From contig CAVPPB010000003.1 in NCBI GenBank assembly GCA_963707215.1, positions 704,001 through 768,000 on the forward strand: DNA of 64,000 nt, read 5' to 3'. This DNA comes from an uncultured Chloroflexia bacterium. GTDB taxonomy: Bacteria; Chloroflexota; Limnocylindria; Limnocylindrales; CSP1-4. The position numbers and the translations under genes are program-made. Below are positions 41,922-59,822 of the stretch, piece after piece. The notes under the pieces were generated by a model. The model had not been told where the DNA came from and searched no databases. It was given only the letters and a program-made list of their open reading frames with translations. Positions within the stretch are counted from its first letter, which is position 1, and each line of letters starts with the position of its first letter.

Positions 41922-41962
41922 GGGCCTGCTCCCTCCTCGTCCGGCCGTCGGGGGCGGCCGGA

Positions 41963-42799
41963 TCAGCTCTCGGCGGCCTCCACCCCGGCCGCCGTCCGAA
42001 GAGTGGGGGTCGCGATCCGCTGGCGTCGGACCAGGTCGAAACGATAACCGGCCGGCAGCGAGTGGAGGACGACGTTGCTCACCATGACCGGCCGGTGCCC
42101 GCGGACGTCCCAGGCGTCGGTCTCGGAGGCCGACCCATCCACGACCGTGACGCTGCCCCGGCCGATGACCTCCAGGACATGGTCCGGGCCGACGACGCCG
42201 GCCGTGTCCTCGTCGACTCCCAGCCCCAGCAGGCTGGGGTTCTGGGCGATCAGGCTCAGCAACCGGCCCAGCCGGTTCCGCTGCTGGAAGTGCTGGTCGA
42301 CGATCACCCCGGGCAGCACCCCGAGCCCGACCGCGATCTGGGCCATCCGCTGCTTCGGCGTCCCGCCGGAGGTGCCGAAGGCGATCATGTGGCTGCTCAT
42401 CGCCGAGGCTCCCGCGGAGGTCCCCGCGACGACGTTGCCTGCTCGATGGGACTCCAGGATCGCCGCCGCGAGGCGGGTGGCGCCCAGCGTCGCCGAGAGC
42501 TTCAGCTGGTTGCCGCCGGTCAGGAAGACGCCGGTCGAGGCCCCGACCAGGGCGACGGCGGCCTCGTCGTCGGCCTCGGCTCGGGTCGTCGCGTGGATCG
42601 GATGGACACGACGGACACCGAGATCACCGAAGACCTCCCGGTAGCGCTCGGCCGCCTCGACCCCCAGCGACGAGGCCGTGCTGATGACCGCGATCTCGGC
42701 CCGCGGGCCACCGGCCAGCGCCACGAAGCGCTGGAGGATGACACGGTCGCGGAACCTGTCCTCCGCGCCCCCGATGACGATGACGGTGCCGTCGGCCAC
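41963..42799 (-). CDS. cphB: Cyanophycinase
   Basis: IVIGGAED, FLTGGNQL, AGTSAGA (catalytic Ser), VDQHFQQRNRLGRL, GVDEDTA. Confidence 0.96.
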   Translation of the reverse strand: MADGTVIVIGGAEDRFRDRVILQRFVALAGGPRAEIAVISTASSLGVEAAERYREVFGDLGVRRVHPIHATTRAEADDEAAVALVGASTGVFLTGGNQLKLSATLGATRLAAAILESHRAGNVVAGTSAGASAMSSHMIAFGTSGGTPKQRMAQIAVGLGVLPGVIVDQHFQQRNRLGRLLSLIAQNPSLLGLGVDEDTAGVVGPDHVLEVIGRGSVTVVDGSASETDAWDVRGHRPVMVSNVVLHSLPAGYRFDLVRRQRIATPTLRTAAGVEAAES

Positions 42800-42926
42800 G
42801 ACCCGGCGAGCCCTCCCGAACGTTCGCGTGAGGATAGCAAACGGGCCGGAGCCCGCCGGCGAGGCCCCGCGGGGATGACCCGGCGGAGGCGGTCGCGCCC
42901 GGCAGGGTGGACCGCCGACGGCCGGT

Positions 42927-45017
42927 TCAGTGGATCGGGCCGACCGCCTGGTCCAGCGAGGCGCCCCGGAACTCCGACGTGTCCACGAGGCGATGGATCC
43001 TGCTGAGCAGCTCGCGGGCGCTGGCGGGCTTGACCAGGTAGTCGCTGCAGCCGATCGCCTCGGCCTCGGCGATGTCGGCCGCGCTCGAGTTGGCACTGAC
43101 GATCACGATAGGGACGTCGAGGCCGGCCGAGCGGACCTGGCGCGCCAGCTCCAGGCCGCTCCCATCGCCGAGGCCGACGTCGAGCACGATGATGCCGGGC
43201 GTGGACAGCTGGAGCGCCTCTTGGGCAGCCGCCAGGCTCGCCGCCTGCTGGACCTCGTAGCCGGCGCTCGAGAGGACATCGGTGACGAGCTCACGGGCCG
43301 TCGCGTCGTCTTCGACCACCAGGACCGGCACGGACCCCGGCGGCGGAGCGGGCGGCAGTGGCATGATCCGGATCGAGCGGTCGCGCGGCGACGCGATCCG
43401 GACCCCCGGCAGCGAGACGACGAAGGTGCTGCCGATCCCGTACGTGCTGGAAACGTCGATCGAGCCGCCGTGGAGCTCGCAGAGCCGCCGGGCGATCGCC
43501 AGACCCAGCCCCGTGCCGGAAGAGGTCGAGCCCAAACGCTCGAAGGGCTCGAAGACGCGGTCGAGGCTCTCAGCCGGGATGCCGACCCCGGTGTCGTGGA
43601 CGGCGATCCGGACGTCCGCTTCGTCGATGGACGAGTCGATCCAGACGCGCCCACCGGGGGCCGTGAACTTGATCGCGTTGGTCACTAGATTGAGCAGCAC
43701 CTGCCGGAGGCGGAGTGGATCCACCAGGACCCTGGCCTCGGTACGGTCCACCGCCGCCAGCTCGACGCCACGATCGCGAGCGACCGGGGCGGCGGCATCC
43801 ACGGCCTCGAGGATCAGGGCCTGGAGCTCGATCGGCTCGGGGTGCAGCTCAAGGTGGCCCGAGTTGATCCGGGCGAGGTCCACGACGTCGTCGATGAGGC
43901 CCAGGAGGTGCTTGCCGCTGGCGTGGATCTTGGTGCCCAGCTCGCGCATCCGATCCTCGGTCAGGGCGCCGAGCGCGGGATCGCTGACGAGCTCGGCCGC
44001 GATCAGGATCGAGTGCACCGGCGTGCGCAGCTCGTGGCTGACCGTGGCCAGGAATCGGAGGCGCTGCTGCGCCCCCTGCTCGAGCTCGGCGTTGAGGCGG
44101 TCGAGCTCCTCGACGAGGCGGGTCATCCGGCCGTGGATCCGGGCGTTGACCAGGGCGCCTGCGGCGTGCGCCGCGAGGGCGATGGCGAGCTCGCGATCCG
44201 CGTCATCGAACTCCGCCCGGCCGACCTTGTTGGCGAAGTAGAGCCTGGCCAGCATCTCGCCGTCCTTGACGACCGGGACCCCGAGGAACGACGTCATGAC
44301 CGGGTGGCCTCTCGGCACGCCGACGGATGCCTGGTGAGCCCGGAGGTCGGCCAGCATCACCGGACCGCTGTCGGCGGTGATCAGCCCGAGCACGCCCCTG
44401 CCGACCGGGAGCGGCCCCATCCGCTCGACGGTCTCGGGCTCGATGCCCTGGTGCAGGAACCGGTCGGTCGCCCCCTCGTCGCCGACGACGAGCATCGCGG
44501 CGTACTGGGCGCCCATGATCGACCGCGCCATCGTCAGGATGAGGTCGTGCACCTGCGCGGGCTCCCGGACGTCGGCCAGGGCGAGCATCGCCGAGCGGAT
44601 CCTGGATTCAGAGTCGCGGGCCCCGTCGATGACGGACTGCAGCGGGCCTCGATCGATGACGGTGACGAGCAGGGCGTCCGGTCCTGCGAGGGGCCGCTCC
44701 GGTCCGCCGGGCCGATCGTGCCACGGCCGCACGAGCAGACAGACGGGCATCGCGCGACCATCCGGGGCGACCATCCGGCACTCCACGTCGACGGCATCGG
44801 ACCGGCCGGCGAGGACCGCGCGCGCCCGTTCGACGATGCCAGGCGCGTCGCCGGGATCGAGCGCCCCGGCCAGGGACCGAACCTTGAGAACGCCAAGGTC
44901 CATGCCGACCAGCTCTCCGAACGGAGGGTTCGCGTGGACCCACCGGAGATCTCGGTCCAGCACCGCCATCGCCAGTGGGACGGCGTCGACCAGGTCGCGG
45001 ATGTGCTCGGATCCCAT
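42927..45017 (-). CDS. Hybrid sensor histidine kinase (PAS-GAF-HisKA-HATPase-REC)
   Basis: PAS (VHANPPF), DosS-like GAF (SVGVPRGHPVMTSFLGVPV), SHELRTP, NLVTNAIKFT, DTGVGI, GTGLGL, C-terminal receiver (VEDD...LDV...KP). Confidence 0.93.
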   Translation of the reverse strand: MGSEHIRDLVDAVPLAMAVLDRDLRWVHANPPFGELVGMDLGVLKVRSLAGALDPGDAPGIVERARAVLAGRSDAVDVECRMVAPDGRAMPVCLLVRPWHDRPGGPERPLAGPDALLVTVIDRGPLQSVIDGARDSESRIRSAMLALADVREPAQVHDLILTMARSIMGAQYAAMLVVGDEGATDRFLHQGIEPETVERMGPLPVGRGVLGLITADSGPVMLADLRAHQASVGVPRGHPVMTSFLGVPVVKDGEMLARLYFANKVGRAEFDDADRELAIALAAHAAGALVNARIHGRMTRLVEELDRLNAELEQGAQQRLRFLATVSHELRTPVHSILIAAELVSDPALGALTEDRMRELGTKIHASGKHLLGLIDDVVDLARINSGHLELHPEPIELQALILEAVDAAAPVARDRGVELAAVDRTEARVLVDPLRLRQVLLNLVTNAIKFTAPGGRVWIDSSIDEADVRIAVHDTGVGIPAESLDRVFEPFERLGSTSSGTGLGLAIARRLCELHGGSIDVSSTYGIGSTFVVSLPGVRIASPRDRSIRIMPLPPAPPPGSVPVLVVEDDATARELVTDVLSSAGYEVQQAASLAAAQEALQLSTPGIIVLDVGLGDGSGLELARQVRSAGLDVPIVIVSANSSAADIAEAEAIGCSDYLVKPASARELLSRIHRLVDTSEFRGASLDQAVGPIH

Positions 45018-45365
45018 GTGCCGCCCAGGCCCTCTCCGCTCCAAGCCCGGCGGGATCGCCGGGGGACGCGCGCCGGTCGGGCGATTGTGCTCGTTGGAAC
45101 CGAGGGCGTCTACCCGCATCCGGGGGGTCTCCGGGCCGGGGTGCCGCTCCGGGTGCAGGGGACGGCCTGCTGCATTCGCGGGGCCGCTCCATCGGCTGCT
45201 GCGTGCGGCGCCCGTTGACGGCGCCGGTATGGTTGAGGCTCGGCTCACCGCTGCCGTGCCGGATGTGGTTCCCAGGGTACGTGCCCGCCCGGGGAGGACC
45301 GACCGGCGCTCGGGGAGGGGCGGGGTCGATCATGGGCCTGCGTCTTCCGGGGGAGGAGGACGAGG

Positions 45366-46163
45366 ATGGCAGGGGGTGTCTTCGGCCGACCCGAGATCGG
45401 CTCGACCGGTCCGCACGTAGAGGAGCGGGCCGCGCCGGTCCCGGGCGGGGCGCGCTCGAGCAGCGCCACCGGTCCGGTCCGCCCACCCGAGACGGCTCCG
45501 GCGAGCCCGATCCGGGTGATGGTGGTGGATGATCACCTGGCGTTCGCGGAGGCGCTGGCCATGGTCATCACCGCGCGCCCGGATCTCGACTGCCCGGTCA
45601 TCGCGACGTCGATCACCGACGGCCTGCGGGCCGCGGAGCGCGAGGCCCCGGACGTGATCCTGCTCGACGTGCTGCTCCCGGACGGCGACGGCGTCGACGC
45701 GATCGACCGGTTCCGCGACGCCGCGCCCGGTACCCGGATCCTGGTGCTGACCGGCCACATGGACCTCGACGTGCTGACGCGAGCCGCGGCCTCGGGGGCA
45801 AGCGGCTTCCTCCAGAAGGAGAGCAACGTCGAGGCGATCGTCCGGGCCATCCGGGCGGCACGGGACGGCACGATCCTCGTCGAGCAGGCGACGCTGACCT
45901 CGATCCTCGGCCGGGTCCGCCAGGGCGCCGCCTCGGCCGGGGCGGCGGACGACCGTCCCCACCTGACCGCCCGCGAGATGGACGTCCTCGCCCTGATGGG
46001 CGAGGGGCTCGACCCGCACGCCATCGCCCAGCTGCTCGAGATCAGCCTCAATACCTGTCGTGGCTACCAGAAGAGCCTCATGGCCAAGCTGGACGCCCAC
46101 AGCCAGCTCGAGGCCGTCGTGATCGCCACGCGCCGAGGGATCATCCAGCCGCCCAAGAGCTGA
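45366..46163 (+). CDS. NarL/FixJ family response regulator
   Basis: VMVVDDH, LLDVLLPDGDG, GASGFLQK, LuxR HTH LTAREMDVL...KLDAHSQLEAV. Confidence 0.94.
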   Translation: MAGGVFGRPEIGSTGPHVEERAAPVPGGARSSSATGPVRPPETAPASPIRVMVVDDHLAFAEALAMVITARPDLDCPVIATSITDGLRAAEREAPDVILLDVLLPDGDGVDAIDRFRDAAPGTRILVLTGHMDLDVLTRAAASGASGFLQKESNVEAIVRAIRAARDGTILVEQATLTSILGRVRQGAASAGAADDRPHLTAREMDVLALMGEGLDPHAIAQLLEISLNTCRGYQKSLMAKLDAHSQLEAVVIATRRGIIQPPKS

Positions 46164-46216
46164 CCCGGCACCGGCCGGTGACCCGGCCGTCGCGCCGGCG
46201 CCGGGCCGCCCGCGTC

Positions 46217-46236
46217 GACCCCCAAGACTGGGGGTC
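46217..46236. promoter_or_regulatory. Perfect inverted repeat, candidate operator upstream of the giant oxidase gene
   Basis: GACCCCCA-AGAC-TGGGGGTC, with no U-tract after it. Confidence 0.45.
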
Positions 46237-46352
46237 TCGCCCCTCCAGTTGCGGGCTCGTCGCCCGGTCCATCGACCCCGACCATAGTCGCGTCCGCCCG
46301 TGGAGGGAACGTGGCGGTGGAGGATGACCGGTCCGGTCGAGGAGGGAAATCG

Positions 46353-49300
46353 ATGGACCGCTTGCGCGCTGTGCCTGTGCGCGCCGTGCGTGCACGAGCA
46401 CGGGCGGCCGCGCCGCCCGACCCCCGTCGTCGCCGGTCCGCCGCAACGGCTCCGATGTCACGGTCGATCCGGCCGCTGGCGTTCCTGGTGGCCGCCGTGG
46501 CGATCGCGCTCGGAGGGATCGGCACCGCCCACGAGTACCACCACGAGCTCCACGAGCACCACGAGCTGCCCCCCATCCTCCACTTCGGTCGTGACGCCGC
46601 GCTCGCCCTCCCGTTCGCGGTCGTCGCGGTCCTGGCCGCGACCGTCCTCTGCCTTGCCGTCCTCCGTCACGGCCGCAGCGCCGCCACCTCGATCGGTCTG
46701 CGCCTCCTCTGGGCGCTGAGCGCCGCCGGCGTCTTCGCCGCCCTCAGCATCCCGGGCAACGAGCTCCACGGGCGCCTGTTCGCCGCCGAGCACACCCTCG
46801 AGCTCGGCTGGCTGGAGCACGCCCTGCGTGATGCCGGCTTCGTCTTCGCCGGCTCCGCGATCGCCGCCGCCCTCGTCGCCGTGACGATCGGCCCACCGTG
46901 GCCGACCCGTCGCCTGGCGGCCTGGCCGCGCGCCTCGAGGCCCAGCGCCGGCCTCCTCGTCCCCGTCGCCCGGAGAGTGGGCGCGGCGTTCCTGGGCCTC
47001 GCGGTCCTGGCCTCGCCGATGCTGCCCTTCCCCACTCCCGCGTTCGTGCCGCCGGTCGAGGCGGTCGAGCCCGGGGTGGCGGCCGAGTGCGTCCGCACCG
47101 TCACGGCCGACGTCGTGGCGCTGGACCAGCCCTTCTACTACAACCGGCTGGGCGCCATCAACGCCAACGGCATGATCTACGCGCTCGCCCGGGACGTGGT
47201 CGTGAACGCCGGCGTCGCCGGCCTCGCCGGTCGCCCGCTGAGCGAGCTGACCGATGCCGAGCGGGAGACCGTAGACGGCCAGGTCTCGCTCCGAGCGGAC
47301 AAGCGACCTCGGCCGCTGACCCTCCGGGTGAATGAGGGGGACTGCCTGGCGATCCACTTCACGAACCTGCTGGACCCCGTCGGGTTCATCTTCGACCTGC
47401 CGGCCGACTTCCCGACGGACCCGATCCTGGGCCTCGGCGTACCGATCAACCAGCAGGTCGACAACCAGCCGCTCACCCGCGTGGCGTCGATCCATGTCGA
47501 CGGCCTGGAGCTGGTGAACGGCATCGCCGACGACGGTTCGCGCGTGGGCCGGAACCCCGCTGGCAGCAGTGTCGTCGCGCCCGGCTTCAGCACCGACTAC
47601 ACCTACTACGCCCCGGACAAGGGCACCCACCTGCTCTACAGCATGGGCACGACCCTCGGCGCGGAAGGCGACGGCGGGACTCGCTCCTACGGGCTGTTCG
47701 GAGCGGTCAACGTCGAGCCAGGCCCGACGGGCACCTTCCCCGGCTCGCTCTGGTACCGCAGCCAGTTGACCCGCCAGGAGATGGACTGGGCCACGCCTCC
47801 CGAGACGTTCACCGACTGGAACGCCAACGGGACCTGGGACGCCGGCATCGCCGAGCCCCTGACCGACTGGAACGAGAACGGGGTCCAGGACAACGGCATC
47901 GCCGAGCCCCTGACCGACTGGAACGAGAACGGGGTCCAGGACAACGGCATCGCCGAGCCCCTGACCGACTGGAACGAGAACGGGGTCCAGGACAACGGCA
48001 TCGCCGAGCCCTTCACCGACGTCGATGGCGGCACCCCTGGCGTGTACGACCTGGGCGAGCCGTTCACCGACTGGAACGAGAGCGGGGCCTGGGACGCCAG
48101 CGTCGACGAGCCGTTCACCGACTGGAACGAGAGCGGGGCCTGGGACGCCAGCGTCGACGAGCCGTTCACCGACTGGAACGAGAGCGGGGCCTGGGACGCC
48201 AGCGTCGACGAGCCGTTCACCGACTGGAACGAGAGCGGGGCCTGGGACGCCAGCGTCGACGAGCCGCTCGTCGACACGAACGGCGACGGGATCTGGAACG
48301 CCCACCAGGCGACCCCGGGCGGCCAGCCGATCCTCGACTACTTCGCGACGTACCCGCTGGAGGCCGGGCCGGCGAAGGCGGGCCTGCCGATCCTCAGCAT
48401 CCTCACGCCCGACCTGGAGATCATCCACTCGGACCTCAACGCGATCGTCGACGACCGCGGCTTCCCGTACCCGGACAACCAGGCCTACCCCAACCGCGGC
48501 GAGGAGCCGTTCCGCGAGTTCACGGTGATCTTCCACGACGAAGGCGTGGGGGTTCAGGCGTTCCCCGGCTTCTACAACGACCCGGTCCTGCGCCACACCC
48601 TCCACGGCGTCGTGGACGCCTTCCCGATCAACTACGGGTCGGGCGGCATCGGTTCGGAGATCATCGCCAACCGGCTCGGCGTGGGTCCGATGTGGGACTG
48701 CGCCGAGTGCAAGTACGAGGAGTTCTTCCTCACCTCGTTCACGGTCGGCGACCCGGCCATGATCGTCGACGTCCCGGCGAACACGACCGACGCCGCGGGC
48801 GCCATCATCCCCGGCCCCAAGGCCACCAAGGCCCTCTTCCCCGACGATCCGTCGAACGTCCACCACGCTTACCTGGGCGACCGGGTGGTGTTCCGCAACC
48901 TGCACGCCGGGCCCAAGGAGCACCACATCTTCCACCTGCACGCCCACCAGTGGCAGTTCAACCCGGACGACCCACAGTCGAACTACCTCGACGGCCAGGC
49001 GGTCGGGCCGGGCTCCGGCTACACCTACGAGATCGCCTATGGCGGGTCGGGCAACCGGAACCTCACCCCGGGCGACTCGATCTTCCACTGCCACTTCTAC
49101 CCGCACTTCGCCCAGGGCATGTGGGAGCTCTGGCGGGTCCACGACACCTTCGAGCCCGGGACGCTCATGGAGACCGACCCGACCGACGGCCTGCCGTGGC
49201 CGGCTGATGGCGCGCGCGCCCTGCCGGACGGGGAGATCGTCCGCGGTACGCCCATCCCGGGCGTGGTCCCGATGCCCGGGACGCCGATGGCGCCGATCCC

Positions 49301-52300
49301 CGACCCGGCTGCGACGATCGTGGCCCACGACCTCGACGGGGACGGCGCCCCCGACTCCAGCCAGTTCGACGCGAACGGCGACGGCATCGCCGACATCCTC
49401 CAGCCCGACGACCCGACCGCCGAGCCGGCGACGAACCCCGGCTACCCATGGTTCACCCCGGGCCTGGTCGGCCACCGGCCGCCCACGCCGGCGCTGGACC
49501 TCATCGACGACGGCGGCCTGCCACGCCACGTGGTCGCGAGTGGCCCGCTCGAGGACAACCCCGGCCACGCGGGGCCGCCCGTCGATACGTACGTCTCGCG
49601 GCTCGACTTCAACAAGGTCCTCCACGAGGCCTCGGCGATCCAGCTCCCGGAGGACGGCACCCCGGCGGAGCAGGTCGCCATGGCCTTCCACGCCGGCCCC
49701 GGCGGAGGCGACCCGACCTACGACAGCTTCTTCCCCGACGGTGCACCGGCCACGGGCCCGGACGGGTTCGAGGTGAACGGCTTGCCACCGGTCCGTGGCG
49801 CGCCCTTCGCCGATCCGTGCCGTGCCTTCAACGGCTCAGGGCCCTGGACCCTCGACTACCCCAACGGGACGGTGCGGACGATCAAGGGCGCCAACATCGA
49901 GATGCCGATCGTCCTCAACAAGGTGGGCTGGCACTTCCAGCAGCAGCGCTTCGAGGCGCTCTGGGAGGACGTCGTCCCGACGTTGACGAACGCCCGTGCC
50001 CCGCAGCCGATGATCATGCGGCTCAACAGCACCGACTGTGCCGAGTTCCACCATGCCAACCTGGTGCCGAACGTCTACCAGCTCGACGACTACCAGGTCC
50101 GCACGCCGACCGACATCATCGGCCAGCACATCCACTTGGTGAAGTTCGACGTCATGAGCGCCGACGGGTCGGCCAACGGCTGGAACTACGAGGACGGGAC
50201 CCTCAGCCCGGACGAGGTCCGCGAGCGCATCGACGCTTTCAACAACGGCGGCGGCCTGGTCCAGCTCGACGGCACCACGACGACGGCGCTCGCGCCGGAG
50301 GCCCATCCGTACTTCGGAGCGACCGGCCCGGACGACCAGGACTGGCGCGGCGCCCGGACCACCGTCCAGCGCTGGTACGCCGACCCGCTCCTCGAGCGAG
50401 CCTGGGACGGTGGCGTGGGCACCGTCTTCACCCACGACCACTACGGCCCGTCCACGCACCAGCAGGTGGGCCTCTACTCGACCCTGCTCGTCGAGCCGAA
50501 GGGCTCGACCTGGCGCCACAACGAGACGGGCCAGGCCCTCGGGACCAGGGCGGACGGAGGTCCCACGACCTGGCAGGCGATCATCCAGCCGGGGACCGGA
50601 GCGAGTGACGCCAGGTTCAAGCCCCACCGCGAGTTCTACTTCGAGTTCGCCGACTTCCAGCACGCCTACGAGCGGAACGGCGGCGCCCTGGGAGCCCAGC
50701 CGAACGAGGCCGTCCTCGGCCCGGCCGAGACGATCCCGTCGTACGCGGACTTCGACGACGCCATCAACCCATCGTTCCGGCTGCCGCCGCCGGACCCGGC
50801 CGACATCTACATCCACCCGAACTACTGCCCAGGCACGACCTTCGACGCGGCCGGCAACCCCCTCAACGTCGTGGCCCGACCATGCCCCGAGGCGATCTCG
50901 GCCGACGACCCGGGCACGTATGCCCTGAACTTCCGCAACGAGCCGATCGGCCTGCGGGTCTTCAACGGCCAGGTCGGCCCGGGCGCCGGCCAGTCGCCCG
51001 GCCTCGCCGGCGACATCGCCCACGCCTACCAGTCACGGACGGACCGGGCGATCCCCGAGCTGAACGTCCAGCCCGAGACGAACGGCATCTCCCCATACCC
51101 GCCGCTGACCGCCGACGTCCAGCCCGGCGATCCGTGGACCCCGATGCTCCGGGTCTACATGGGCGACGACGTCCGGATCCGGGTCCAGGTGGGCGCCCAC
51201 GAGGAGGAGCACAACTTCACCATCCCCGGGCTCAAGTGGAAGCAGGAGCCCAACAGCGAGAACTCGGGCTGGAAGAACAGCGAGTTCTTCGGCATCGACG
51301 AGTACTTCAACCTCGACGTGCCGATCGTCCCCGACACCGGCTCCGGCACCCCGGCCCGGGTCGACTACATCTACACGGTCGGCGCCGAGCTCGAGGGCAT
51401 GTGGAACGGCGTCTGGGGCGTCCTCCGCAGCTACAGCAGCCAGCGAAACGACCTGGTGGAGCTGCCGAGCAACGACGTGGGCCGCAACGGCTACGTCATC
51501 ACCAACGACGCAGACTTCGACGGGATCTGTCCGACGACGGCACCGGTGGCCTCGTTCGACGTGACGGCCGTCCGGGCCGTCGACGTCCTGGACCCGGTCC
51601 AGGGCCTCGTCTACAACGAGCGGCTGACGACGCTCCGCGCACCGCTCGGCGGCGTCAACGGACAGGGCCCGCTCATCGACCCGACAGCGCTGATGTACGT
51701 GCTCGACCAGGACCTGGTCCGCGACGCGACCGGGGCCCCGACGGGCTTGAAGCCGGGCACTCCGATCGAGCCGCTCATCCTGCGGGTGAACGCGGGCGAC
51801 TGCGTCCTCGTGGACCTCACGAACGCGCTCCCGCCTGACCTGTCCGGGACCGAGATGCCCGGCCTCAACGCCCTGCCGCCCATCGTCCAGAAGGACGTCG
51901 ACGTGGCGGTCCCCGGCGTCGGCGGGATCCTGACCTTCAACAGCAATGACCTCACCCCCTCGAGCAAGGTCGGCCTGACACCGCAGCTGCTCGCCTTCGA
52001 CCCGCGGACCGACGGCGGGTTCAGCACGGGACTCACCACCGGCCGGCTCGTCGAGCCGGGTGCCACCGGCCGCTACCGCTGGTACGCCGGTGACGTGACG
52101 GTGGCCAACGCCGGTGTCCAGGGCAACCGAACCAGGTTCACCCTGTCGGCCAGCCCGGTCGAGTTCGGGGCCACCGGCCTCATGCCCGCCGACCGGATCA
52201 AGGGCGACGAGAACGGCTTCGTCGGCGCGCTCATCGTCGAGCCGCAGGATTCGTGCTGGATCGCCGACCCGGGCACCCGGGCCCAGGCCACGGTCTGGAA

Positions 52301-55181
52301 GGGGGCCAGGGACGGAGGTGGCGGGACCCTGACCGACGCGTGCCCCGCCCCACCGGCCAGCTCCACGGACAGCTTCCGTGACTTCGTCACGATCATGCAG
52401 AACGGCATCAACCTGCGCTACGGCGGGACGGTGGAGGTCCTCGACGCGCTCGGCAACGTCGTCCAGACGATCGACTGCGCCGCGGACCCGTCCCCGATGC
52501 AGTGCGCCGTCCCGATGATCGCCGCCGAGGGCCCGCTCGGGCCGACCGAGGACCCGCAGGACTCCGGCCAGAAGGCGATCAACTACGGCGCCGACCCGCC
52601 CTGGTTCCGCCTGGGCATCACCCCGGACACCCCGTTCGGGGCGATCCATCGCGACCCGGCGCTCAAGGACACCATCCCGGAGGTCTTCTCCAGCTTCCTC
52701 GACATCGGGGACGGCCTGGGCCAGGCCGGCGATCCACAGACCGAGGTCTTCCGGGCCAGCCCGAACGGGCCGGAGTACGGCCGGTTCCGGGTCGTCATGC
52801 CCGGCGGCCACGCTCGCGGCGTCACCTATACGCTGCACGGCCACCAGTGGCAGCGCCAGCCGTACCTCAACGGCTCCAGCGAGATCGGCCACAGCCCTGT
52901 CTCCGAGTACTACGGGACCCAGGAGGGCATCAACCCGACCGGCCACTGGGACTTCGTGGCCGACCTCGGCGGCGGGTTCGACGTCGCCGGCGACTACCTC
53001 TGGCGGGACCAGGCATCGTTCGGCAGCTTCCAGGGCCTCTGGGGCCTGCTCCGCTTCGACCAGACCGAACCCGTCGCGCCCGACACGGGTGTCACGCTGC
53101 CCAAGTACACGTTCGTCGACCTCGACCTCCTCGCGGGGGCGTTCGACCTCGACGGGCTCATCGGGGCCAGCGTCCAGATCGTCGGCGGGCCGTCGTTCGG
53201 CGCCCTCGTCGACCCGGAGGGCGATGGCACCTACCGCTACACGTCCACGGACTGGCCGGCCTGCGCCGACGCGTTCGCCTGCCAGGACAGCTTCACCTAC
53301 ACCATCACGGACGGGACCGGGTCGGTCTCGGCTGCCGGCACCGTGGTGCTCACCATCACGAACACCGCCCCCGTGGCGAACAACGACACCATCATCATCA
53401 AGGCACCGTTCACCGGCGGCTCCGTGGACGTGCTCCTCAACGACCTCGACGCCGAGGGCGATCTCGACCCGGCTCGCGACCCGGTCGTGGAGCCGTTCGG
53501 CCAGCCGGTCGATCGGCGCGGCAACCCCGTCGGCTCGATCGCCGACGCGGTCGTCGACGCGGACGGCCGAACGGTCACCTACACGCCGCCGGCTGGATGG
53601 TCGGGCGTCGCCCTGATCCAGTACAAGGTCACCGACGAGTCCGGAGCGGTCTCGAACACGGCCCTCATCCGGGCGGCCGTGAACGTCGACGACATCACCA
53701 TCACGAGCGCCCGCTACCAGCCCGCCAACCAGCGCTGGTCGATCTCGGGCACCTGCAACACGCCGTTCGAGCCGGGCACCAGCACGCCCACGACGATCGA
53801 GATCTTCTCCGGTCCCACGATCGAAGGGACGCCCCCGGTGATCGGGACGGCCACCTGCATCCCGGGCGACCCGGTCGGGACCTGGAGCTTCAGCGGCACG
53901 TCGACCGTGCCGGCGCCGGACCCGAACGCCTTCAACTACGTGAGCGCCGAATCCGCCCTCCAGGGTTTCTACGAGGGCTTCCCGCTCACCTTCGCCGGCC
54001 AGAACAACGCGCCGGTCGCCACGAACGACGTCTACACCACGGACGAGGACACGACGCTCACCGGGAACGTCCTCGCCAACGACAGCGACGCGGACTTCGA
54101 CCCGCTGACCGCGGCCCTGGTCACCGGGCCCGCGCACGGGACGCTGGCGCTCGCCCCGACCGGAGGCTTCACGTACGAACCCGACCCGGACTACGCGGGC
54201 ACCGACAGCTTCACCTACCAGGCCAGCGACGGGCAGGACCAGTCGGCCGTCGCCTCGGTCGACATCACGATCACCGCCGTCAACGACGCGCCACGGGCCG
54301 TCGACGACACGTACGTCACCGATGCCGGGGTGCCGCTGAGCGTCCCCGCCCCCGGCATCCTATCCAACGACAGCGACGTCGAGGGCGACCCGTTCACGCT
54401 CGACACGACGCCGCTGAGCGATCCGGCCAACGGGATCGTCGCCCTGAACGGCGACGGCTCGTTCACCTACACCCCGGCGGTGGGCTTCAGCGGCACCGAC
54501 TCCTTCGTGTACCGCATCTGCGAAGACCTCGGCGGTCCGAGCGAGCTCTGCGGCACGGCGACGGTCACGATCGCCGTCGGGGTGAACAGCGCCCCCACGG
54601 CGAACGACGACGCCGGCTACACGACCGCGCAGAACACGACCCTGAACGTCGGCGGTCCGGGCGTGCTCGGCAACGACACCGATCCCGACAACGACCCCCT
54701 CGTCGTCGCATCGGTCAATGGCGTCGCGACCAACGTCGGCGCCGCCGTGGCCCTGCCCTCGGGCAGCACCGTCACCGTCCAGGCGAACGGGTCGTTCACC
54801 TACGTCCCGCGCTTCAACTTCGTCGGCAACGACTCCTTCACGTACGTCGCCGGCGATGTCCCGGCCGGCGCCCTCTCGCACACGGCCACCGTGACCGTCG
54901 CCGTGAAGGACACGGTGACGATCACCAGCGCCAGCTACCGGCAACGCCAGGGCCGCTGGCAGGTCCAGGGCACGGTCTCGAACACGACCAGTCGCGTGGA
55001 CGTGTACCTGAACCGCGTCGCGCCGGCGGACCTGCTCGGGGCGGCGAATGTCGACGCGATCGACGGGAGCTGGTCGCTCAGCGGCGTGCTCGGGAAGACC
55101 CCAGGGGTGGGCGACACGGTCATCGCCGTCTCCTCCGGCCGGGGCGAATCGGCTCCATTCCCGGTGTCGATCAGACGGTAG
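46353..55181 (+). CDS. Giant MnxG-like multicopper oxidase with N-terminal His-rich membrane domain, Ca-binding-like repeats and C-terminal Ig/cadherin-like domains
   Basis: Cu motifs HHIFHLHAHQW, IFHCHFYPHFAQGM, GQHIHLVKFD, FTHDHYGPSTHQQVGL, TLHGHQW. N.AP.A.DD..GSFTY.P..F.G.DSF.Y Big_9-like repeats. GGAGGG RBS before ATG 46353 (alternative start 46455). Confidence 0.9.
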   Translation: MDRLRAVPVRAVRARARAAAPPDPRRRRSAATAPMSRSIRPLAFLVAAVAIALGGIGTAHEYHHELHEHHELPPILHFGRDAALALPFAVVAVLAATVLCLAVLRHGRSAATSIGLRLLWALSAAGVFAALSIPGNELHGRLFAAEHTLELGWLEHALRDAGFVFAGSAIAAALVAVTIGPPWPTRRLAAWPRASRPSAGLLVPVARRVGAAFLGLAVLASPMLPFPTPAFVPPVEAVEPGVAAECVRTVTADVVALDQPFYYNRLGAINANGMIYALARDVVVNAGVAGLAGRPLSELTDAERETVDGQVSLRADKRPRPLTLRVNEGDCLAIHFTNLLDPVGFIFDLPADFPTDPILGLGVPINQQVDNQPLTRVASIHVDGLELVNGIADDGSRVGRNPAGSSVVAPGFSTDYTYYAPDKGTHLLYSMGTTLGAEGDGGTRSYGLFGAVNVEPGPTGTFPGSLWYRSQLTRQEMDWATPPETFTDWNANGTWDAGIAEPLTDWNENGVQDNGIAEPLTDWNENGVQDNGIAEPLTDWNENGVQDNGIAEPFTDVDGGTPGVYDLGEPFTDWNESGAWDASVDEPFTDWNESGAWDASVDEPFTDWNESGAWDASVDEPFTDWNESGAWDASVDEPLVDTNGDGIWNAHQATPGGQPILDYFATYPLEAGPAKAGLPILSILTPDLEIIHSDLNAIVDDRGFPYPDNQAYPNRGEEPFREFTVIFHDEGVGVQAFPGFYNDPVLRHTLHGVVDAFPINYGSGGIGSEIIANRLGVGPMWDCAECKYEEFFLTSFTVGDPAMIVDVPANTTDAAGAIIPGPKATKALFPDDPSNVHHAYLGDRVVFRNLHAGPKEHHIFHLHAHQWQFNPDDPQSNYLDGQAVGPGSGYTYEIAYGGSGNRNLTPGDSIFHCHFYPHFAQGMWELWRVHDTFEPGTLMETDPTDGLPWPADGARALPDGEIVRGTPIPGVVPMPGTPMAPIPDPAATIVAHDLDGDGAPDSSQFDANGDGIADILQPDDPTAEPATNPGYPWFTPGLVGHRPPTPALDLIDDGGLPRHVVASGPLEDNPGHAGPPVDTYVSRLDFNKVLHEASAIQLPEDGTPAEQVAMAFHAGPGGGDPTYDSFFPDGAPATGPDGFEVNGLPPVRGAPFADPCRAFNGSGPWTLDYPNGTVRTIKGANIEMPIVLNKVGWHFQQQRFEALWEDVVPTLTNARAPQPMIMRLNSTDCAEFHHANLVPNVYQLDDYQVRTPTDIIGQHIHLVKFDVMSADGSANGWNYEDGTLSPDEVRERIDAFNNGGGLVQLDGTTTTALAPEAHPYFGATGPDDQDWRGARTTVQRWYADPLLERAWDGGVGTVFTHDHYGPSTHQQVGLYSTLLVEPKGSTWRHNETGQALGTRADGGPTTWQAIIQPGTGASDARFKPHREFYFEFADFQHAYERNGGALGAQPNEAVLGPAETIPSYADFDDAINPSFRLPPPDPADIYIHPNYCPGTTFDAAGNPLNVVARPCPEAISADDPGTYALNFRNEPIGLRVFNGQVGPGAGQSPGLAGDIAHAYQSRTDRAIPELNVQPETNGISPYPPLTADVQPGDPWTPMLRVYMGDDVRIRVQVGAHEEEHNFTIPGLKWKQEPNSENSGWKNSEFFGIDEYFNLDVPIVPDTGSGTPARVDYIYTVGAELEGMWNGVWGVLRSYSSQRNDLVELPSNDVGRNGYVITNDADFDGICPTTAPVASFDVTAVRAVDVLDPVQGLVYNERLTTLRAPLGGVNGQGPLIDPTALMYVLDQDLVRDATGAPTGLKPGTPIEPLILRVNAGDCVLVDLTNALPPDLSGTEMPGLNALPPIVQKDVDVAVPGVGGILTFNSNDLTPSSKVGLTPQLLAFDPRTDGGFSTGLTTGRLVEPGATGRYRWYAGDVTVANAGVQGNRTRFTLSASPVEFGATGLMPADRIKGDENGFVGALIVEPQDSCWIADPGTRAQATVWKGARDGGGGTLTDACPAPPASSTDSFRDFVTIMQNGINLRYGGTVEVLDALGNVVQTIDCAADPSPMQCAVPMIAAEGPLGPTEDPQDSGQKAINYGADPPWFRLGITPDTPFGAIHRDPALKDTIPEVFSSFLDIGDGLGQAGDPQTEVFRASPNGPEYGRFRVVMPGGHARGVTYTLHGHQWQRQPYLNGSSEIGHSPVSEYYGTQEGINPTGHWDFVADLGGGFDVAGDYLWRDQASFGSFQGLWGLLRFDQTEPVAPDTGVTLPKYTFVDLDLLAGAFDLDGLIGASVQIVGGPSFGALVDPEGDGTYRYTSTDWPACADAFACQDSFTYTITDGTGSVSAAGTVVLTITNTAPVANNDTIIIKAPFTGGSVDVLLNDLDAEGDLDPARDPVVEPFGQPVDRRGNPVGSIADAVVDADGRTVTYTPPAGWSGVALIQYKVTDESGAVSNTALIRAAVNVDDITITSARYQPANQRWSISGTCNTPFEPGTSTPTTIEIFSGPTIEGTPPVIGTATCIPGDPVGTWSFSGTSTVPAPDPNAFNYVSAESALQGFYEGFPLTFAGQNNAPVATNDVYTTDEDTTLTGNVLANDSDADFDPLTAALVTGPAHGTLALAPTGGFTYEPDPDYAGTDSFTYQASDGQDQSAVASVDITITAVNDAPRAVDDTYVTDAGVPLSVPAPGILSNDSDVEGDPFTLDTTPLSDPANGIVALNGDGSFTYTPAVGFSGTDSFVYRICEDLGGPSELCGTATVTIAVGVNSAPTANDDAGYTTAQNTTLNVGGPGVLGNDTDPDNDPLVVASVNGVATNVGAAVALPSGSTVTVQANGSFTYVPRFNFVGNDSFTYVAGDVPAGALSHTATVTVAVKDTVTITSASYRQRQGRWQVQGTVSNTTSRVDVYLNRVAPADLLGAANVDAIDGSWSLSGVLGKTPGVGDTVIAVSSGRGESAPFPVSIRR
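47802..48305 (+). repeat. In-frame 51-bp (17-aa) tandem array, 10 units
   Basis: Units start at 47802, 47853, 47904, 47955, 48006, 48057, 48108, 48159, 48210 and 48261. Three identical EPLTDWNENGVQDNGIA and four identical EPFTDWNESGAWDASVD. Confidence 0.95.
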
Positions 55182-55206
55182 CGACTGTGCGAACCTAGGC
55201 GGGACG

Positions 55207-55239
55207 GACGTGGGCCGCGTCGAGAGACCGGCCCACGTC
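55207..55239 (+). other. Intergenic stem-loop between the oxidase and beta-propeller genes
   Basis: GACGTGGGCCG...CGGCCCACGTC, an 11-bp perfect stem with no U-tract. Confidence 0.55.
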
Positions 55240-55275
55240 ACTGCCCTTGGGGCACGCGAGCGAGTGGGAGGACGC

Positions 55276-57303
55276 ATGCAGGCGACGGGCGAACGGCATC
55301 CGGGCTGGCTTCTGCCGGTCCTGGCCGCCCTCGCCCTGGTCCTCTCCGGCTGCTCGATCCTGTCGGGCACCGTGCCGGCGGAGCATGCCCACGAGCCCGG
55401 CACCGAGGACGTGGAGCACACCCACGGCCCCGGGACCGACGAGGGTGAGCACGCCGGTGAGGGCGCCGTGGACCTGGACCATCACGGCAACCCGGTCTAC
55501 GGGGAGGACGAGCGCGTCTACGAGACGGTGACCACCGGCGGCGTGACCGTCGAATTCACCGTCGAGAACTTCATCGGCGTCGGCGGCCGGGGTGGCGAGG
55601 TGGCACCGAGGCTCGTCGAGGGCGAGCACGCCAACCTCCAGTTCCACGTGACCGATGCCTCGACCGGCGCCCCCGTTCCGGATCTGGCGCCCGCCGTCTG
55701 GGTCGACGTCGCCGGTGGCGACGCGGACTGCTCGGCGCGGGTGGCCGGCTATCGGTCCGGGGCGCTGGACCGGCGACCGTTGGTCGACCTCAACAGCTAC
55801 TTCATCCTGGCCATGAACCGGGACAACACCATCTCGGTCCTCGATCCGACGGTCGACGTCGCCGGGATGACCAACCTCTTCTCGGTGATCCTGCTGCAGG
55901 CGGACCCGGGGGACTGGGCGCTGGACCCCGAAGGTGACCGGCTGTTCGTGACGCTGCCGTCGCTCGACAAGATCGCCGTCATCGACACGGAAGGGTTCAT
56001 GGTCGAGGACCACGTCGACCTGCCGGGCACCCCGACCCACATCGCCATGGAACCCGGCGGGGCACGGGCCTGGGTCAGCCTCGCCGGCGATGACGGGCTG
56101 GCCATCATCGATGTCGGGACGCTGGCGAGCGAGCGGCTCGAGGGAGCGGTCGCCACGGCTGCGGCCTTCGGGAGCGATGGGCGAGCCCTGGTCGGCACAC
56201 CTCGTGGCGTGTCCATCCGGGACATCGGGACCCTGGCCGAGCTCGGCCGGGTCGACCTGCCCGGGACTCCGGCGACCATCGCGGTCGGTCCGACCGGCGA
56301 CGCGTACGTCGCCCAGCCCGATGCCGGGCTCGTCTCGGTCCTCGGGCCGGACGGGACGGAGCGGGCGCGTATCGCGACCGGCCGGGGGGTGACCGCGGTG
56401 GCCATCTCGCCCGACGGACGCTGGGCCGTCGCCGCCGATCCCAGCGCCGATGCGGTGTACCTCATCGAGACCGCGACGGACCGGATGACCCACGTGATCC
56501 CGGTCAGGGGCTCGCCCGACCTGGTGACCTTCACCTCGACGTCCGCTTACGTGCACACCCCCGACTCACCGTCGATCACCGTCATCCCGCTGGCCGAGAT
56601 CGACCCGACCGGCGACGTGGGGGTCCTCACCGTCCCGATCGGGGACCGGCCCGCCGGCTCCACGGGCGCTCCGACCATCGGCGGGGCGCTCGCGCCGACG
56701 CCGAACGGGGCAGCCATGCTCATCCCAAACCCGGCCGACGACACCGTCTACTTCTACACCGAGGGGTCGAAGTCGGCCCTCGGGGGCTTCCAGGGTCACA
56801 CGCTGGAGCCGCGTGCGGTCCAGGTCGTCGACCGGAGCCTCCGCCAGCCCTCACCGGGCGTCTACACCGGCAGCATCCGGATCCCCCAGGGCAAGGACTT
56901 CGTCGTGGCCTTCCAGCTCGCGGACCGGAAGCTGACCCATTGCTTCGAGTTCTCGGCCCGGGCGACCGAACGACCGCTCGACGACCCGGCAGCCCGGCCG
57001 GAGATCGAGGTCCTCACGGCCGACGGATCGTTCGTCGCCGGCTCCCCGGTCGCCTATCGGTTCCGGCTGGCGACGGCCGACGGACGACCGATCGCGGAGC
57101 TGAGCGACCTCAGCACCCTGGCCGTCGGCACGGCCACCGGGTGGAGGGATCGCTTCGCGGCCGTCCACGTCGGCGACGGCGTCTACGAGGCCACCCTCCA
57201 GCTGCCGGCACCCGGCTACTACCAGCTCTTCTTCGCGGTGCCGTCCATCGGGGTCGGCTACGCCGACCTGCCGTCGCGATCGGTCAAGGTGGCTCCGGGC
57301 TGA
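55276..57303 (+). CDS. YncE/cytochrome d1-like beta-propeller lipoprotein with His-rich N-terminus and YtkA/FixH-like C-terminus
   Basis: GGGAGG RBS; signal peptide with lipobox LSGC; EHAHEP..EHTH..EH..DHH; propeller blades (DPEGDRLFV, ISPDGRWAV); GDGVYEA..PAPGYY. Confidence 0.82.
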   Translation: MQATGERHPGWLLPVLAALALVLSGCSILSGTVPAEHAHEPGTEDVEHTHGPGTDEGEHAGEGAVDLDHHGNPVYGEDERVYETVTTGGVTVEFTVENFIGVGGRGGEVAPRLVEGEHANLQFHVTDASTGAPVPDLAPAVWVDVAGGDADCSARVAGYRSGALDRRPLVDLNSYFILAMNRDNTISVLDPTVDVAGMTNLFSVILLQADPGDWALDPEGDRLFVTLPSLDKIAVIDTEGFMVEDHVDLPGTPTHIAMEPGGARAWVSLAGDDGLAIIDVGTLASERLEGAVATAAAFGSDGRALVGTPRGVSIRDIGTLAELGRVDLPGTPATIAVGPTGDAYVAQPDAGLVSVLGPDGTERARIATGRGVTAVAISPDGRWAVAADPSADAVYLIETATDRMTHVIPVRGSPDLVTFTSTSAYVHTPDSPSITVIPLAEIDPTGDVGVLTVPIGDRPAGSTGAPTIGGALAPTPNGAAMLIPNPADDTVYFYTEGSKSALGGFQGHTLEPRAVQVVDRSLRQPSPGVYTGSIRIPQGKDFVVAFQLADRKLTHCFEFSARATERPLDDPAARPEIEVLTADGSFVAGSPVAYRFRLATADGRPIAELSDLSTLAVGTATGWRDRFAAVHVGDGVYEATLQLPAPGYYQLFFAVPSIGVGYADLPSRSVKVAPG

Positions 57304-57437
57304 CCCGCCCAGGGCAGGACAGCCGGATCCGCGGGTCCAGCCGCGACCGAGCGCACCGGGGCCCGTCATCGCTGCTCCGGAGGCGATCCCCGGTCGAGGC
57401 TGGCGCAGCCAGGCCGGCCCGTGCGACGATGCGGGAT

Positions 57438-58388
57438 ATGGCGATGACCGCCCGGATCTCGCGACGGTCCCACCGACACGGGGAGGTCTTCCGGCGAGCG
57501 CTGCAGCGGGAGGTCGCCCGGCTGCGTGAGCCCAGGCGGATCGTCGCGATGGTCCTGCTCGTGCTGGCCTTCGCGGTGGCGATGGCCGGGCTGTACGCCC
57601 GCGGCGAGCAGGCAGGGGCGGACGCACGGGCATACTGGGCCGGGGTCCGACTCTGGCTCGGGGGTGGCGATCCGTACGATCCCACGGGGCCGTTCCTGCC
57701 CTACGTCTACGCGCCCTGGATGCTGCCGCTCTTCCTCCCCTGGGCCCTGCTGCCGTGGGAGGTCGCCTGGTTCGCGTGGCGAGTCGGCACGATCCTGGCC
57801 CTGCTCTGGACCGTCGAGTGGGCGTACCGCCGGCGGCCTCTGGCGACCGCCGTCGTCATCGCGCTGCTGCTGATCCCGTTCATGGCCAACCTCGACACCG
57901 GCAACATCAACCTCCAGCTGACCCTGGCCCTCTGGGCCGCCCAGTTCGCCGGGCCGGTCACAGCCGGCGCGCTGTGGGCCCTGGCGACCTGGATGAAGTG
58001 GGTGCCGGCGCCCTTCTGGCTGATCCTCGCGCCGCGGGCCCGCGGATGGGGCCTGATCTGGCTCGCCCTGGCCGCGGTCCTGAGCCTGATCATGCTGCCG
58101 CTCACGATCCTCCAGCTCCAGGCCATCTTCGGCTTCGGTCCGCGGCCGCTCCGTCTCGACTACCTGGTCTTCCTATGGGCGCTGGTGCCCTGGGTCTGGC
58201 GCCATCCCGATCCGCTCTGGTGGCTGCGGCCGTCGAGCTGGCCCGGCCTGCGCGACCGGGTGGCGACGAACCTGCGGACCTGGCGCTGGCGCCTTGCCGA
58301 CGATCGCCGGGGCGCGCTCAGGATCGCCGCCGGCGATCTGCGAACGGGCTTCCGTCGGCTCGTCGGCCTGGATGTAGAGGACCGCTAG
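57438..58388 (+). CDS. GT-C (family 87-like) membrane glycosyltransferase
   Basis: GADARAYW...GGDPY..FLPYVYAPW, DTGNIN, WMKWVP; multiple TM segments. Start uncertain (57429/57438/57444). Confidence 0.8.
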   Translation: MAMTARISRRSHRHGEVFRRALQREVARLREPRRIVAMVLLVLAFAVAMAGLYARGEQAGADARAYWAGVRLWLGGGDPYDPTGPFLPYVYAPWMLPLFLPWALLPWEVAWFAWRVGTILALLWTVEWAYRRRPLATAVVIALLLIPFMANLDTGNINLQLTLALWAAQFAGPVTAGALWALATWMKWVPAPFWLILAPRARGWGLIWLALAAVLSLIMLPLTILQLQAIFGFGPRPLRLDYLVFLWALVPWVWRHPDPLWWLRPSSWPGLRDRVATNLRTWRWRLADDRRGALRIAAGDLRTGFRRLVGLDVEDR

Positions 58389-59752: not shown

Positions 59753-59822
59753 CTCGGCATCCCCTCTGGCCCTCTGACGCAGCGGCTCGGGTGGCGTTGC
59801 AGCACGACGCGGTACGGGCTCG

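Follow-up and report, generated by a model that had tools for sequence, protein, structure and literature searches.

In sediments, manganese oxidation by bacteria influences how metals and carbon cycle, and its enzymology rests on two model systems, Bacillus spores and Pseudomonas putida. According to PMC13689576, Mn is oxidised by the Pseudomonas multicopper oxidase MnxG (evidence from genetics) and by the more distant Bacillus MnxG (biochemistry and cryo-electron microscopy), the latter sitting on the spore exosporium, where it works together with a ring of MnxE3F3. In P. putida GB-1's mnxG operon, according to PMC11409713 (Table 4), the second gene encodes a YVTN beta-propeller repeat protein, with two SCO1/SenC genes, a gene with substrate-binding/cytochrome c domains and a SurA-domain gene after it; the product of that second gene is called a beta-propeller lactonase-family protein in PMC8218464. 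Here we describe an MnxG-type multicopper oxidase gene at 46353..55181 (+ strand; frame open from 46311; 2942 residues from the ATG) in a 64,000-nucleotide stretch of contig CAVPPB010000003.1, hereafter the window, which comes from an uncultured Chloroflexia bacterium. The kind of enzyme is already known, as MnxG-like multicopper oxidases, and its long form is widespread; of interest are a His/Asp membrane module and its two-component cassettes, an MnxG-propeller pair shared across phyla, and an acidic repeat loop that can expand. We consider it probable that the gene encodes a membrane-tethered, extracytoplasmic, six-domain oxidase of the Pseudomonas MnxG type, which would oxidise Mn(II), O2 serving as electron acceptor, and yield Mn(III/IV) oxide by the mechanism proposed below.

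On the + strand, a single unbroken frame runs from 46311 to 55181 and encodes 2956 amino acids (aa) counted from the first GTG; the ATG at 46353, with GGAGG ~8 nucleotides (nt) on its 5' side, begins the 2942-aa protein on record (P0002). The original prediction, an open reading frame (ORF) of ~2,940 aa at 46353..55181, had start and coordinates right. Guanine plus cytosine (GC) content is 0.69-0.72 over the oxidase gene versus 0.72-0.74 in its flanks. A promoter scan of 45200-57600 returned 0 promoter-like sites, and a terminator scan of the same interval returned one site, on the opposite strand inside the oxidase gene, with more in shuffled sequences; both scans are uninformative in DNA of 70% GC. 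With regard to family, NF041487, the 1894-position model of Pseudomonas-type MnxG, matches at 1480.3 bits (E = 0), with profile positions 1-1893 covered in order in five pieces, and the only solved relative found by sequence is Bacillus MnxG (9bxa, E 2.4e-72). The MnxG-type assignment and the circularly shifted order of copper motifs, both proposed in the original prediction, are borne out by these matches: the order is L3, L4, L1, L2, as in Bacillus MnxG, chain positions 251-359 of which align to residues 842-951 of the window protein, and 448-609 to 1192-1409.

The copper set is complete. The first two motifs, H872-x-x-H875-x-H877 (nt 48924-48941) and H926-C927-H928-x3-H932-x4-M937 (nt 49086-49121), the latter containing the sole HCH in the protein, are followed by H1273-I-H1275 (nt 50127-50135) and H1375-D-H1377 (nt 50433-50441). 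Together they supply the type-1 (T1) copper ligands H872, C927, H932 and M937 and the eight histidines of the trinuclear cluster (H875, H877, H926, H928, H1273, H1275, H1375 and H1377); these four motifs, with one T1 site and an eight-His cluster, place the protein in the multicopper oxidase superfamily. The original prediction had correctly named a single complete T1 site, and all the copper motifs lie inside the ranges it proposed. Pfam support is marginal, at 21.2 bits for Cu-oxidase_3 (cut-off 21) and 18.7-19.4 bits for Cu-oxidase_2 (cut-off 20.4). Relatives were sought with the core (aa 250-2250), which matched 3487 proteins at E <= 0.001 among 7996 candidates scored; counts over relatives given below cover the best 119 matches other than the window's own protein. 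Among these, the catalytic motifs are retained almost throughout (L3 in 113, L4 in 117, L1 in 117 and L2 in 119), and histidine remnants of domains 4 and 6, which are described below, persist in 64 and 78.

The protein was folded with AlphaFold 2 (AF2) as two pieces, from alignments of 60 and 61 relatives. The model of aa 40-1180 has a predicted local distance difference test score (pLDDT) of 76.7 and a predicted template modelling score (pTM) of 0.73; that of aa 1181-2380 has a pLDDT of 85.1 and a pTM of 0.86. The first piece superposes, over model residues 223-1132, on chain 1-436 of 9bxa_A (Z 22.7, 422 residues aligned, root-mean-square deviation [rmsd] 3.5) and the second on chain 441-1213 (Z 22.4, 723 aligned, rmsd 3.5); 9bxa is also the top Foldseek match (E 3.2e-18), and matches to many solved multicopper oxidases at Z 19-22, with the pLDDT values, establish the cupredoxin fold. 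Domain counting and segment-wise modelling gave six cupredoxin domains and all 12 T1/trinuclear ligands. As modelled, the core is six cupredoxin domains collinear with Bacillus MnxG, with an extra ~750 residues in loops and linkers. Domain 1 (47094..47774, + strand; Cu-oxidase_3 at 21.2 bits and 9bxa alignment) is without copper ligands. Domain 2 (48318..49160, +; sequence, alignment and Pfam) carries the T1 site and four trinuclear histidines, and domain 3 (49866..50570, +; alignment and motifs) carries H1273, H1275, H1375 and H1377. Domains 4-6 (50571..53081, +; limits approximate; delimited by the AF2 model, the 9bxa superposition, the domain 6 alignment and motif counts) have no Cys-containing T1 site, and only the remnants GAHEEEH (H1630, H1634) and HGHQW (H2176, H2178) are left there. 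Domain 2 also contains a CxxC (WDCAECKYEEF; nt 48699-48710, aa 797-800), which 90% or more of 60 family members retain; leaving aside the T1 ligand C927, a further seven cysteines are invariant (aa 345, 1170, 1243, 1506, 1525, 1740 and 1831). The conserved ectodomain cysteines may form disulfides or an extra metal site; disulfides would be consistent with an extracytoplasmic topology.

The best structural matches include chains of coagulation factors V and VIII (Z 20-21.7), which raises the alternative that the protein is a non-catalytic surface adhesin or scaffold with no more of a multicopper oxidase than its fold, as in those factors, the C-terminal tail being the functional part. The long adhesin-like tail would fit, as would the variety of tails among relatives, which include RCC1, PKD, LamG or TolB-like domains. 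However, many relatives have no tail at all, and intact T1 and trinuclear ligands, all 12 of them, with motifs kept in 113-119 of 119 relatives, would be unexpected in the absence of catalysis; we consider the scaffold explanation very improbable.

Ahead of domain 1 lies an N-terminal membrane module (46473..47033, +), delimited by hydropathy, AF2 and conservation. It comprises four long helices (aa 55-77, 88-120, 127-157 and 167-192; pLDDT 85-96) and a fifth transmembrane (TM) segment at aa ~216-241, which is modelled less confidently; the His-rich, multi-TM N-terminus of the original prediction is recovered here as five hydrophobic segments over aa 52-241 with His-rich loops. Conserved residues gather at ends of the four helices that lie on the same side: H74, H77 and H81 at the end of helix 1, H91 and D95 before helix 2 (LHWLRD motif), H153 and H161 after helix 3 (PGNxLHGxLFGAEH motif), and H170 and D174 before helix 4. 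The loops between the hydrophobic segments are Arg-rich on alternate sides, and the N-terminus is itself Arg-rich. Five TM segments read with the positive-inside rule would put the conserved His/Asp ends and the whole oxidase outside the cytoplasmic membrane. In this Arg-rich, predicted cytoplasmic leader, contigs of two metagenome runs (X4 and X5) are 15 nt shorter at 46363, so that leader length varies between strains.

In the mechanism that we propose for a manganese oxidase, the Arg-rich N-terminus would remain in the cytoplasm and the five TM helices would place the ~2700-residue remainder outside. Single electrons would be taken from the metal substrate at the type-1 copper and passed through the Cys-His pathway to the trinuclear cluster between domains 2 and 3, where O2 would be reduced to water. 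Copper would probably be loaded outside the cell, because a TM-anchored protein of such size has to cross the membrane unfolded; the His/Asp cluster in the membrane module and a His-rich propeller lipoprotein encoded by the next gene are candidates for this task, in place of the SCO1/SenC proteins of Pseudomonas. A DxNxNGxxD loop in domain 1 and an acidic domain 2-3 loop would bind Ca2+ or Mn2+, the Big_9 tail might serve as a Ca-stiffened stalk or adhesion arm, and a soluble hybrid kinase with a LuxR-type regulator would control expression.

The domain 1 loop is a hypervariable insertion (47775..48317, +) of nine 17-residue repeats of the DxNxNGxxD type, identified with Tandem Repeats Finder and by alignment. 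The DNA array occupies 47800-48266 (period 51, 9.2 copies, 86% matches), in agreement with the inserted repeat array noted in the original prediction. In an alignment of 60 family members, it sits at one fixed loop, after a conserved WYRSQLTRxEMDxAT, and the length of this loop ranges from 11-12 aa in basal relatives through 181 aa in the window protein to 361 aa in relative P0063. The repeat unit, (F/L)TDxNxNGxWDxxxxxEP, contains the DxNxNGxxD pattern, which we take to resemble the calcium-binding loops of dockerin, thrombospondin type 3 and FG-GAP kinds. The region is modelled as disordered; the array matched no Pfam family and no PDB sequence (best E 0.83), and a Pfam match of the array to McyA_C was judged spurious. 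In the domain 2-3 linker (49161..49865, +), the alignment consensus holds a second, family-wide acidic motif, DLDGDGxxDSSQxDxNGDGxAD, which resembles a calcium loop and gives a weak FG-GAP_3 match (E 0.0019). Judged by their motifs, the repeats and this linker may bind divalent cations, either as structural Ca2+ or by capturing Mn2+.

The C-terminal tail (53082..55178, +; Pfam and hydropathy) consists of five Big_9/cadherin-like immunoglobulin-like domains and two ~90-aa beta domains. The former, foreseen in the original prediction as about five, were found as Big_9, Cadherin_4 or Cadherin_5 stretches at aa 2258-2346, 2351-2450, 2565-2653, 2658-2755 and 2761-2864, with PF17963 (Big_9) at 246.8 bits over the 5 stretches and NF012211 at 205 bits (cut-off 90), both above their cut-offs. 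The two ~90-aa domains (aa 2460-2562 and 2865-2956) are paralogous to each other (28% identity, E 7e-8) and match no Pfam family, and no C-terminal anchor was found in the tail. Display at the cell surface or S-layer had been proposed; the former is reasonable, as the predicted topology puts the oxidase outside, and nothing speaks for the latter, with no SLH or other S-layer domain at E <= 0.1 in Pfam and NCBIfam scans of the whole protein. That the oxidase binds the mineral it deposits, as also proposed, is speculation.

A frame of this length, assembled from membrane protein, oxidase and adhesin, could in principle be a chimera of assembly or gene calling; the N-terminal module does occur elsewhere as a stand-alone gene, and the tandem array is collapsed in short-read contigs. 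We nevertheless consider a chimera extremely improbable. There are no stops in 8.8 kb, and independent support comes from contigs of four sediment-metagenome runs, which cover the whole stretch at 90-99% identity and therefore come from related strains. Single contigs bridge the junctions between regulator and oxidase (45302-46551), N-terminal module and domain 1 (46957-47851), core and tail (51222-53446) and oxidase and partner gene (54660-57171). With every module junction bridged by contigs from other runs, the protein is not an assembly fusion, and the fusion envisaged as a caveat in the original prediction is not borne out. The same fused architecture is moreover present in independent assemblies from other samples (P0004, P0006, P0012, L007 and L018), and the added fifth TM helix is just the element required for a fusion to keep the right topology.

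The oxidase gene stands in a conserved cassette. Immediately upstream is a response regulator of the NarL/LuxR type (45366..46163, +; REC and GerE by Pfam) and, divergent from the oxidase operon, a soluble hybrid histidine kinase (42927..45248, - strand; PAS-GAF-HisKA-HATPase-REC by Pfam), in which no TM segment was found (maximum 19-residue hydropathy 1.4). Downstream, the partner gene (55276..57303, +; P0122; sequence, profiles and related loci) encodes a lipoprotein in which an LSGC lipobox and, near the N-terminus, an acidic stretch rich in His are accompanied by the motif DHHGNP, a beta-propeller of YVTN type and, at the C-terminus, a YtkA-like domain. A His-rich N-terminus is common in extracytoplasmic metal-handling lipoproteins. 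The propeller matches TIGR02276 (E 8e-10) and 1l0q (E 2e-14) and, weakly, the AztD zinc metallochaperone (E 0.0048), with no family cut-off reached. At 55380-55452, a 33-nt unit is repeated in tandem (2.2 copies) and yields the partner's His-rich EHxHxPGTD(D/E)G stretch, so that this linker, which looks metal-binding, appears to be length-variable too.

In nine of 13 related loci, the gene directly downstream of the oxidase is a partner orthologue (36-48% identity), and three of the four loci that lack one end at or near the oxidase gene. The His-rich stretch is found in the window partner and in the five related loci whose partner has a lipobox, and the DHHGNP motif in eight of nine related loci, the gammaproteobacterial one alone missing it. 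Regulators similar to the window's occur in the upstream flank of 7/13 related loci and also at a gammaproteobacterial locus (L113; G605:C111:23000-38294), where the order is type II secretion genes, hybrid kinase, LuxR-type regulator, MnxG and YNCE/YtkA propeller. The MnxG of this locus is a 1938-aa ORF that scores 2414 bits against NF041487 and is 45% identical to the window core over ~1800 residues, and its propeller is 32% identical to the window partner (E 1.6e-90). Directly upstream of that cassette are PilN-like, T2SS-M and GspD secretin genes, which fits the dedicated secretion system reported near P. putida mnxG. The cassette of kinase, LuxR-type regulator, MnxG and propeller recurs in Acidimicrobiia, Chloroflexota, Gemmatimonadota and one gammaproteobacterium, and comparison of the loci indicates that the conserved pair at the head of the mnxG operon, oxidase and propeller, is present in the window; the relation that we propose between the two is operon linkage, not binding.

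The architecture, which the original prediction took to be unusual, recurs in the family. Among the best relatives, the N-terminal module is found in 49/119 (profile hidden Markov model count), Big_9 domains in 30/119 (precomputed Pfam) and at least four DxNxNG motifs in 22/119; a tail of at least 200 aa after the last WGxxR is present in 46/119, an approximate figure inflated by incomplete proteins. Several relatives combine N-terminal module, Big_9 domains and repeats (e.g., P0004, 2827 aa, 73% identity). The best relatives go under the source names "hypothetical protein", "Ig-like domain-containing protein", "multicopper oxidase" and "manganese oxidase". By these comparisons, the long modular build is a recurring type in uncultured bacteria and widespread in metagenomes. 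Within the collection of papers searched, none describes an MnxG that has a membrane module at its N-terminus, an inserted repeat or a Big_9 tail. The architecture is common but not experimentally characterised.

Mn(II) is the likely substrate because both studied MnxG lineages bracket the window protein. The chief alternative keeps the same enzyme and anchoring and gives it another substrate, such as Fe(II), in the manner of the ferroxidases ceruloplasmin and Fet3p, Cu(I), or sediment humics and phenolics; we consider this unlikely, though a serious contender. In its favour, the profile score falls short of the MnxG equivalog cut-off, domains 3-6 match ceruloplasmin as strongly as MnxG (Z 22.5 vs 22.4), relatives occur in Methanoperedens, Desulfuromonas and Nitrospirota, and Mn activity in this branch is a prediction from sequence comparison. 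The single T1 site, by contrast, is that of MnxG and not the three of ceruloplasmin; the experimentally studied members of both MnxG lineages oxidise Mn, as far as PMC13689576 describes them; and the YVTN propeller encoded in the same operon is also the partner in Mn-oxidising P. putida, according to the operon table of PMC11409713.

Several further observations weigh against a manganese oxidase anchored, metallated and partnered as proposed. The score of 1480 bits is less than half the 3100-bit NF041487 equivalog cut-off, so that the protein is a member of the wider MnxG-like family and not an equivalog, and Mn(II) oxidation by this Terrabacteria-type branch would be an extrapolation from sequence. 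Some hosts of close relatives (47-48% identity), such as Ca. Methanoperedens nitroreducens (P0077) and Desulfuromonas versatilis (P0112), are not known to oxidise Mn aerobically, which means that the substrate may not be uniform across the family. The topology is drawn from hydropathy and the positive-inside rule only, and metal binding by the repeat region, with its pLDDT below 50, from the motif alone. One related locus (L017) has 6.7 kb of downstream DNA and no partner gene. A scan of 20 ORFs in the 35.4-64 kb interval turned up no SCO1/SenC gene; elsewhere in the genome no search aimed at such genes was made. MnxE/MnxF-like small genes are not evident: the gap between the regulator and the first start is only 147 nt (189 nt to the ATG at 46353), and no small ORF fits between the regulator end at 46163 and the oxidase start at 46311/46353, as judged by ORFs without an MnxE/F profile. 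Finally, in contigs of three runs, 47844 is connected to 48261 through 2 intervening letters, and 414 nt of the array are lost in frame. De Bruijn assemblers collapse tandem arrays; the shorter array may reflect such a collapse or real copy-number variation in related strains, and the copy number in the window is provisional.

As to how this Chloroflexota genome came by the cassette, NF041487 was found in the window genome (G000) only, among 201 genomes of the class and 401 of the phylum, in a search that recovered the family in 5/5 genomes known to hold it and that detected it in 3/351 sampled Gammaproteobacteria genomes. The partner gene, like the N-terminal module, is single-copy in the genome. 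In the host phylum, the partner has matches at E <= 1e-10 in 14/401 genomes (13 besides its own), which are only generic propellers at 26-33% identity, with no orthologue-grade match; the best of the others reaches 27% (E 2e-33). In a FastTree phylogeny of 13 core sequences (1654 columns, midpoint-rooted, taxa by the labels of metagenome-assembled genomes [MAGs]), the window protein groups beside two Acidimicrobiia-labelled MAGs (79% identity to L006; support 99), and Chloroflexota, Actinomycetota and Gemmatimonadota are interleaved. The MetH encoded in the window shares 90% identity with a protein from a "Candidatus Limnocylindrales bacterium" MAG, with other named matches of 69-72% under the same label (one protein), and the order Limnocylindrales belongs to the Chloroflexota, class Ca. 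Limnocylindria. The absence of the gene from the 400 other phylum genomes sampled and the Acidimicrobiia labels of its nearest relatives suggest that the cassette reached this Limnocylindria-like Chloroflexota genome by horizontal transfer, with no donor identified.

The N-terminal module has a distribution of its own. It matches no Pfam or NCBIfam model; 81 relatives were found at E <= 0.001 among 1.84 billion representatives, 23 of them at E <= 1e-10. Many are stand-alone proteins of 190-240 aa that end after the fourth of four TM helices, a few of which look like frameshift products, whereas fused modules carry a fifth, by which the correct topology is kept. Six metagenome loci with stand-alone modules had usable flanks (L081, L082, L084, L085, L087 and L094). 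A LuxR-type regulator lies directly upstream in 5/6 (all except L082), often with a PAS/GAF kinase, and a large secreted SdrD_B/CarboxypepD_reg protein follows in 4/6, the other two reaching the contig edge; the order is PAS/GAF histidine kinase, LuxR-type regulator, module, large secreted protein. No MnxG core was found near the module at any of the six loci, the large neighbours did not match a profile of 59 MnxG-like proteins, and the N-terminal ~430 aa of these secreted proteins match no family. Two leads were set aside: an apparent fusion of the module in L085 proved an overlapping-frame artefact, and DUF6121, carried by 44% of one ESM Atlas cluster, was unmatched in Pfam scans of module proteins at the thresholds used. 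The best ESM Atlas scores, 0.81 for the N-terminal module and 0.88 for a stand-alone relative, are below the 0.9 lead threshold and their clusters are unnamed; structural matches of the module within the 1141-residue model reach Z 7.2 or less (WbaP, SecY), too low to mean anything for helix bundles, and are no sign of a new fold.

From these neighbourhoods, the module emerges as a family in its own right, found alongside two-component systems and large exported proteins, that was fused in the MnxG branch by way of an extra TM helix. Only tentatively, and as an unlikely reading, we would add that the module, with its ring of conserved His and Asp facing the outside of the membrane, is an undescribed extracytoplasmic metal-handling membrane family, for copper loading, Mn/Cu sensing or haem binding. 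It would normally act as a separate protein of ~200 aa in the cassettes of kinase, LuxR-type regulator, module and large secreted protein, and would have been welded onto a manganese oxidase in Acidimicrobiia/Chloroflexota lineages; the result would be a self-anchoring, self-metallating, mineral-forming enzyme with an expandable DxNxNG antenna for capturing cations.

Other genes around the cassette include a cyanophycin synthetase (982-aa ORF, - strand) adjoining an S51 cyanophycinase-type peptidase just upstream of the kinase (38973-43096), and an M20 peptidase ORF and a Mur-ligase-like ORF that overlap on opposite strands (35403-38483). Downstream of the partner are genes for a GT87-family glycosyltransferase-like membrane protein and a major facilitator superfamily (MFS) transporter on the opposite strand (56940-60361); neither the GT87-like nor the MFS gene recurs beside the oxidase in the related loci compared.

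Taken beyond this locus, the results point to Pseudomonas-type MnxG and its beta-propeller partner as a core pair travelling between phyla, including lineages that would do without the type II secretion genes that adjoin mnxG in the gammaproteobacterial case and that have a membrane anchor of their own and no adjacent SCO1 genes. They make testable the questions of what the propeller does, how a giant oxidase threaded through Sec is supplied with copper, and whether acidic arrays tune metal capture; they also flag a membrane-protein family that has no annotation and is linked to two-component systems.

Compared with described systems, the window proteins combine familiar parts in different settings. 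AztD- and YncE-type periplasmic propellers are like the partner in their YVTN-type propeller, to which the partner adds a YtkA-like domain. Two-domain laccases of actinomycetes (SLAC/Ssl1) superpose on the domain pairs 1-2 and 5-6 of the oxidase (Z ~21, 253 aligned, rmsd 3.1), but they trimerise to form their clusters, whereas the window protein has its domains in one chain. Ceruloplasmin shares the six-domain fold (1kcw, Z 22.5, 560 aligned, aa 1181-2380 piece), with 12-19% identity for ceruloplasmin and factors V/VIII. Ceruloplasmin has three T1 sites and a cluster between domains 1 and 6. Both ceruloplasmin and the coagulation factors are eukaryotic and soluble, whereas the window protein is bacterial with a predicted membrane anchor. 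Bacillus sp. PL-12 MnxG (9bxa) is alike in its six-domain order, with T1 and L3/L4 in domain 2 and L1/L2 in domain 3; its chain of 1227 aa compares with a ~2000-aa core in the window protein, the extra length lying in loops and linkers.

MnxG of P. putida GB-1 (PputGB1_2447) is alike in full-profile collinearity, in the order of the copper motifs, in its single T1 site, in its extracellular location (predicted for the window protein) and in the YVTN beta-propeller gene that follows it, the window gene for P0122 being placed in the same way. It differs in having a signal peptide and type II secretion where the window protein has a five-TM N-terminal anchor, and it is without the 181-residue repeat insertion in domain 1 and the ~700-residue Big_9 tail. 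Its operon includes SCO1/SenC, SurA-domain and cytochrome c-domain genes, none of which is found downstream in the window (20 ORFs scanned), and the regulator there, according to PMC13689576, is the sigma-54-dependent MnxR, as compared with the NarL/LuxR type at the window locus.

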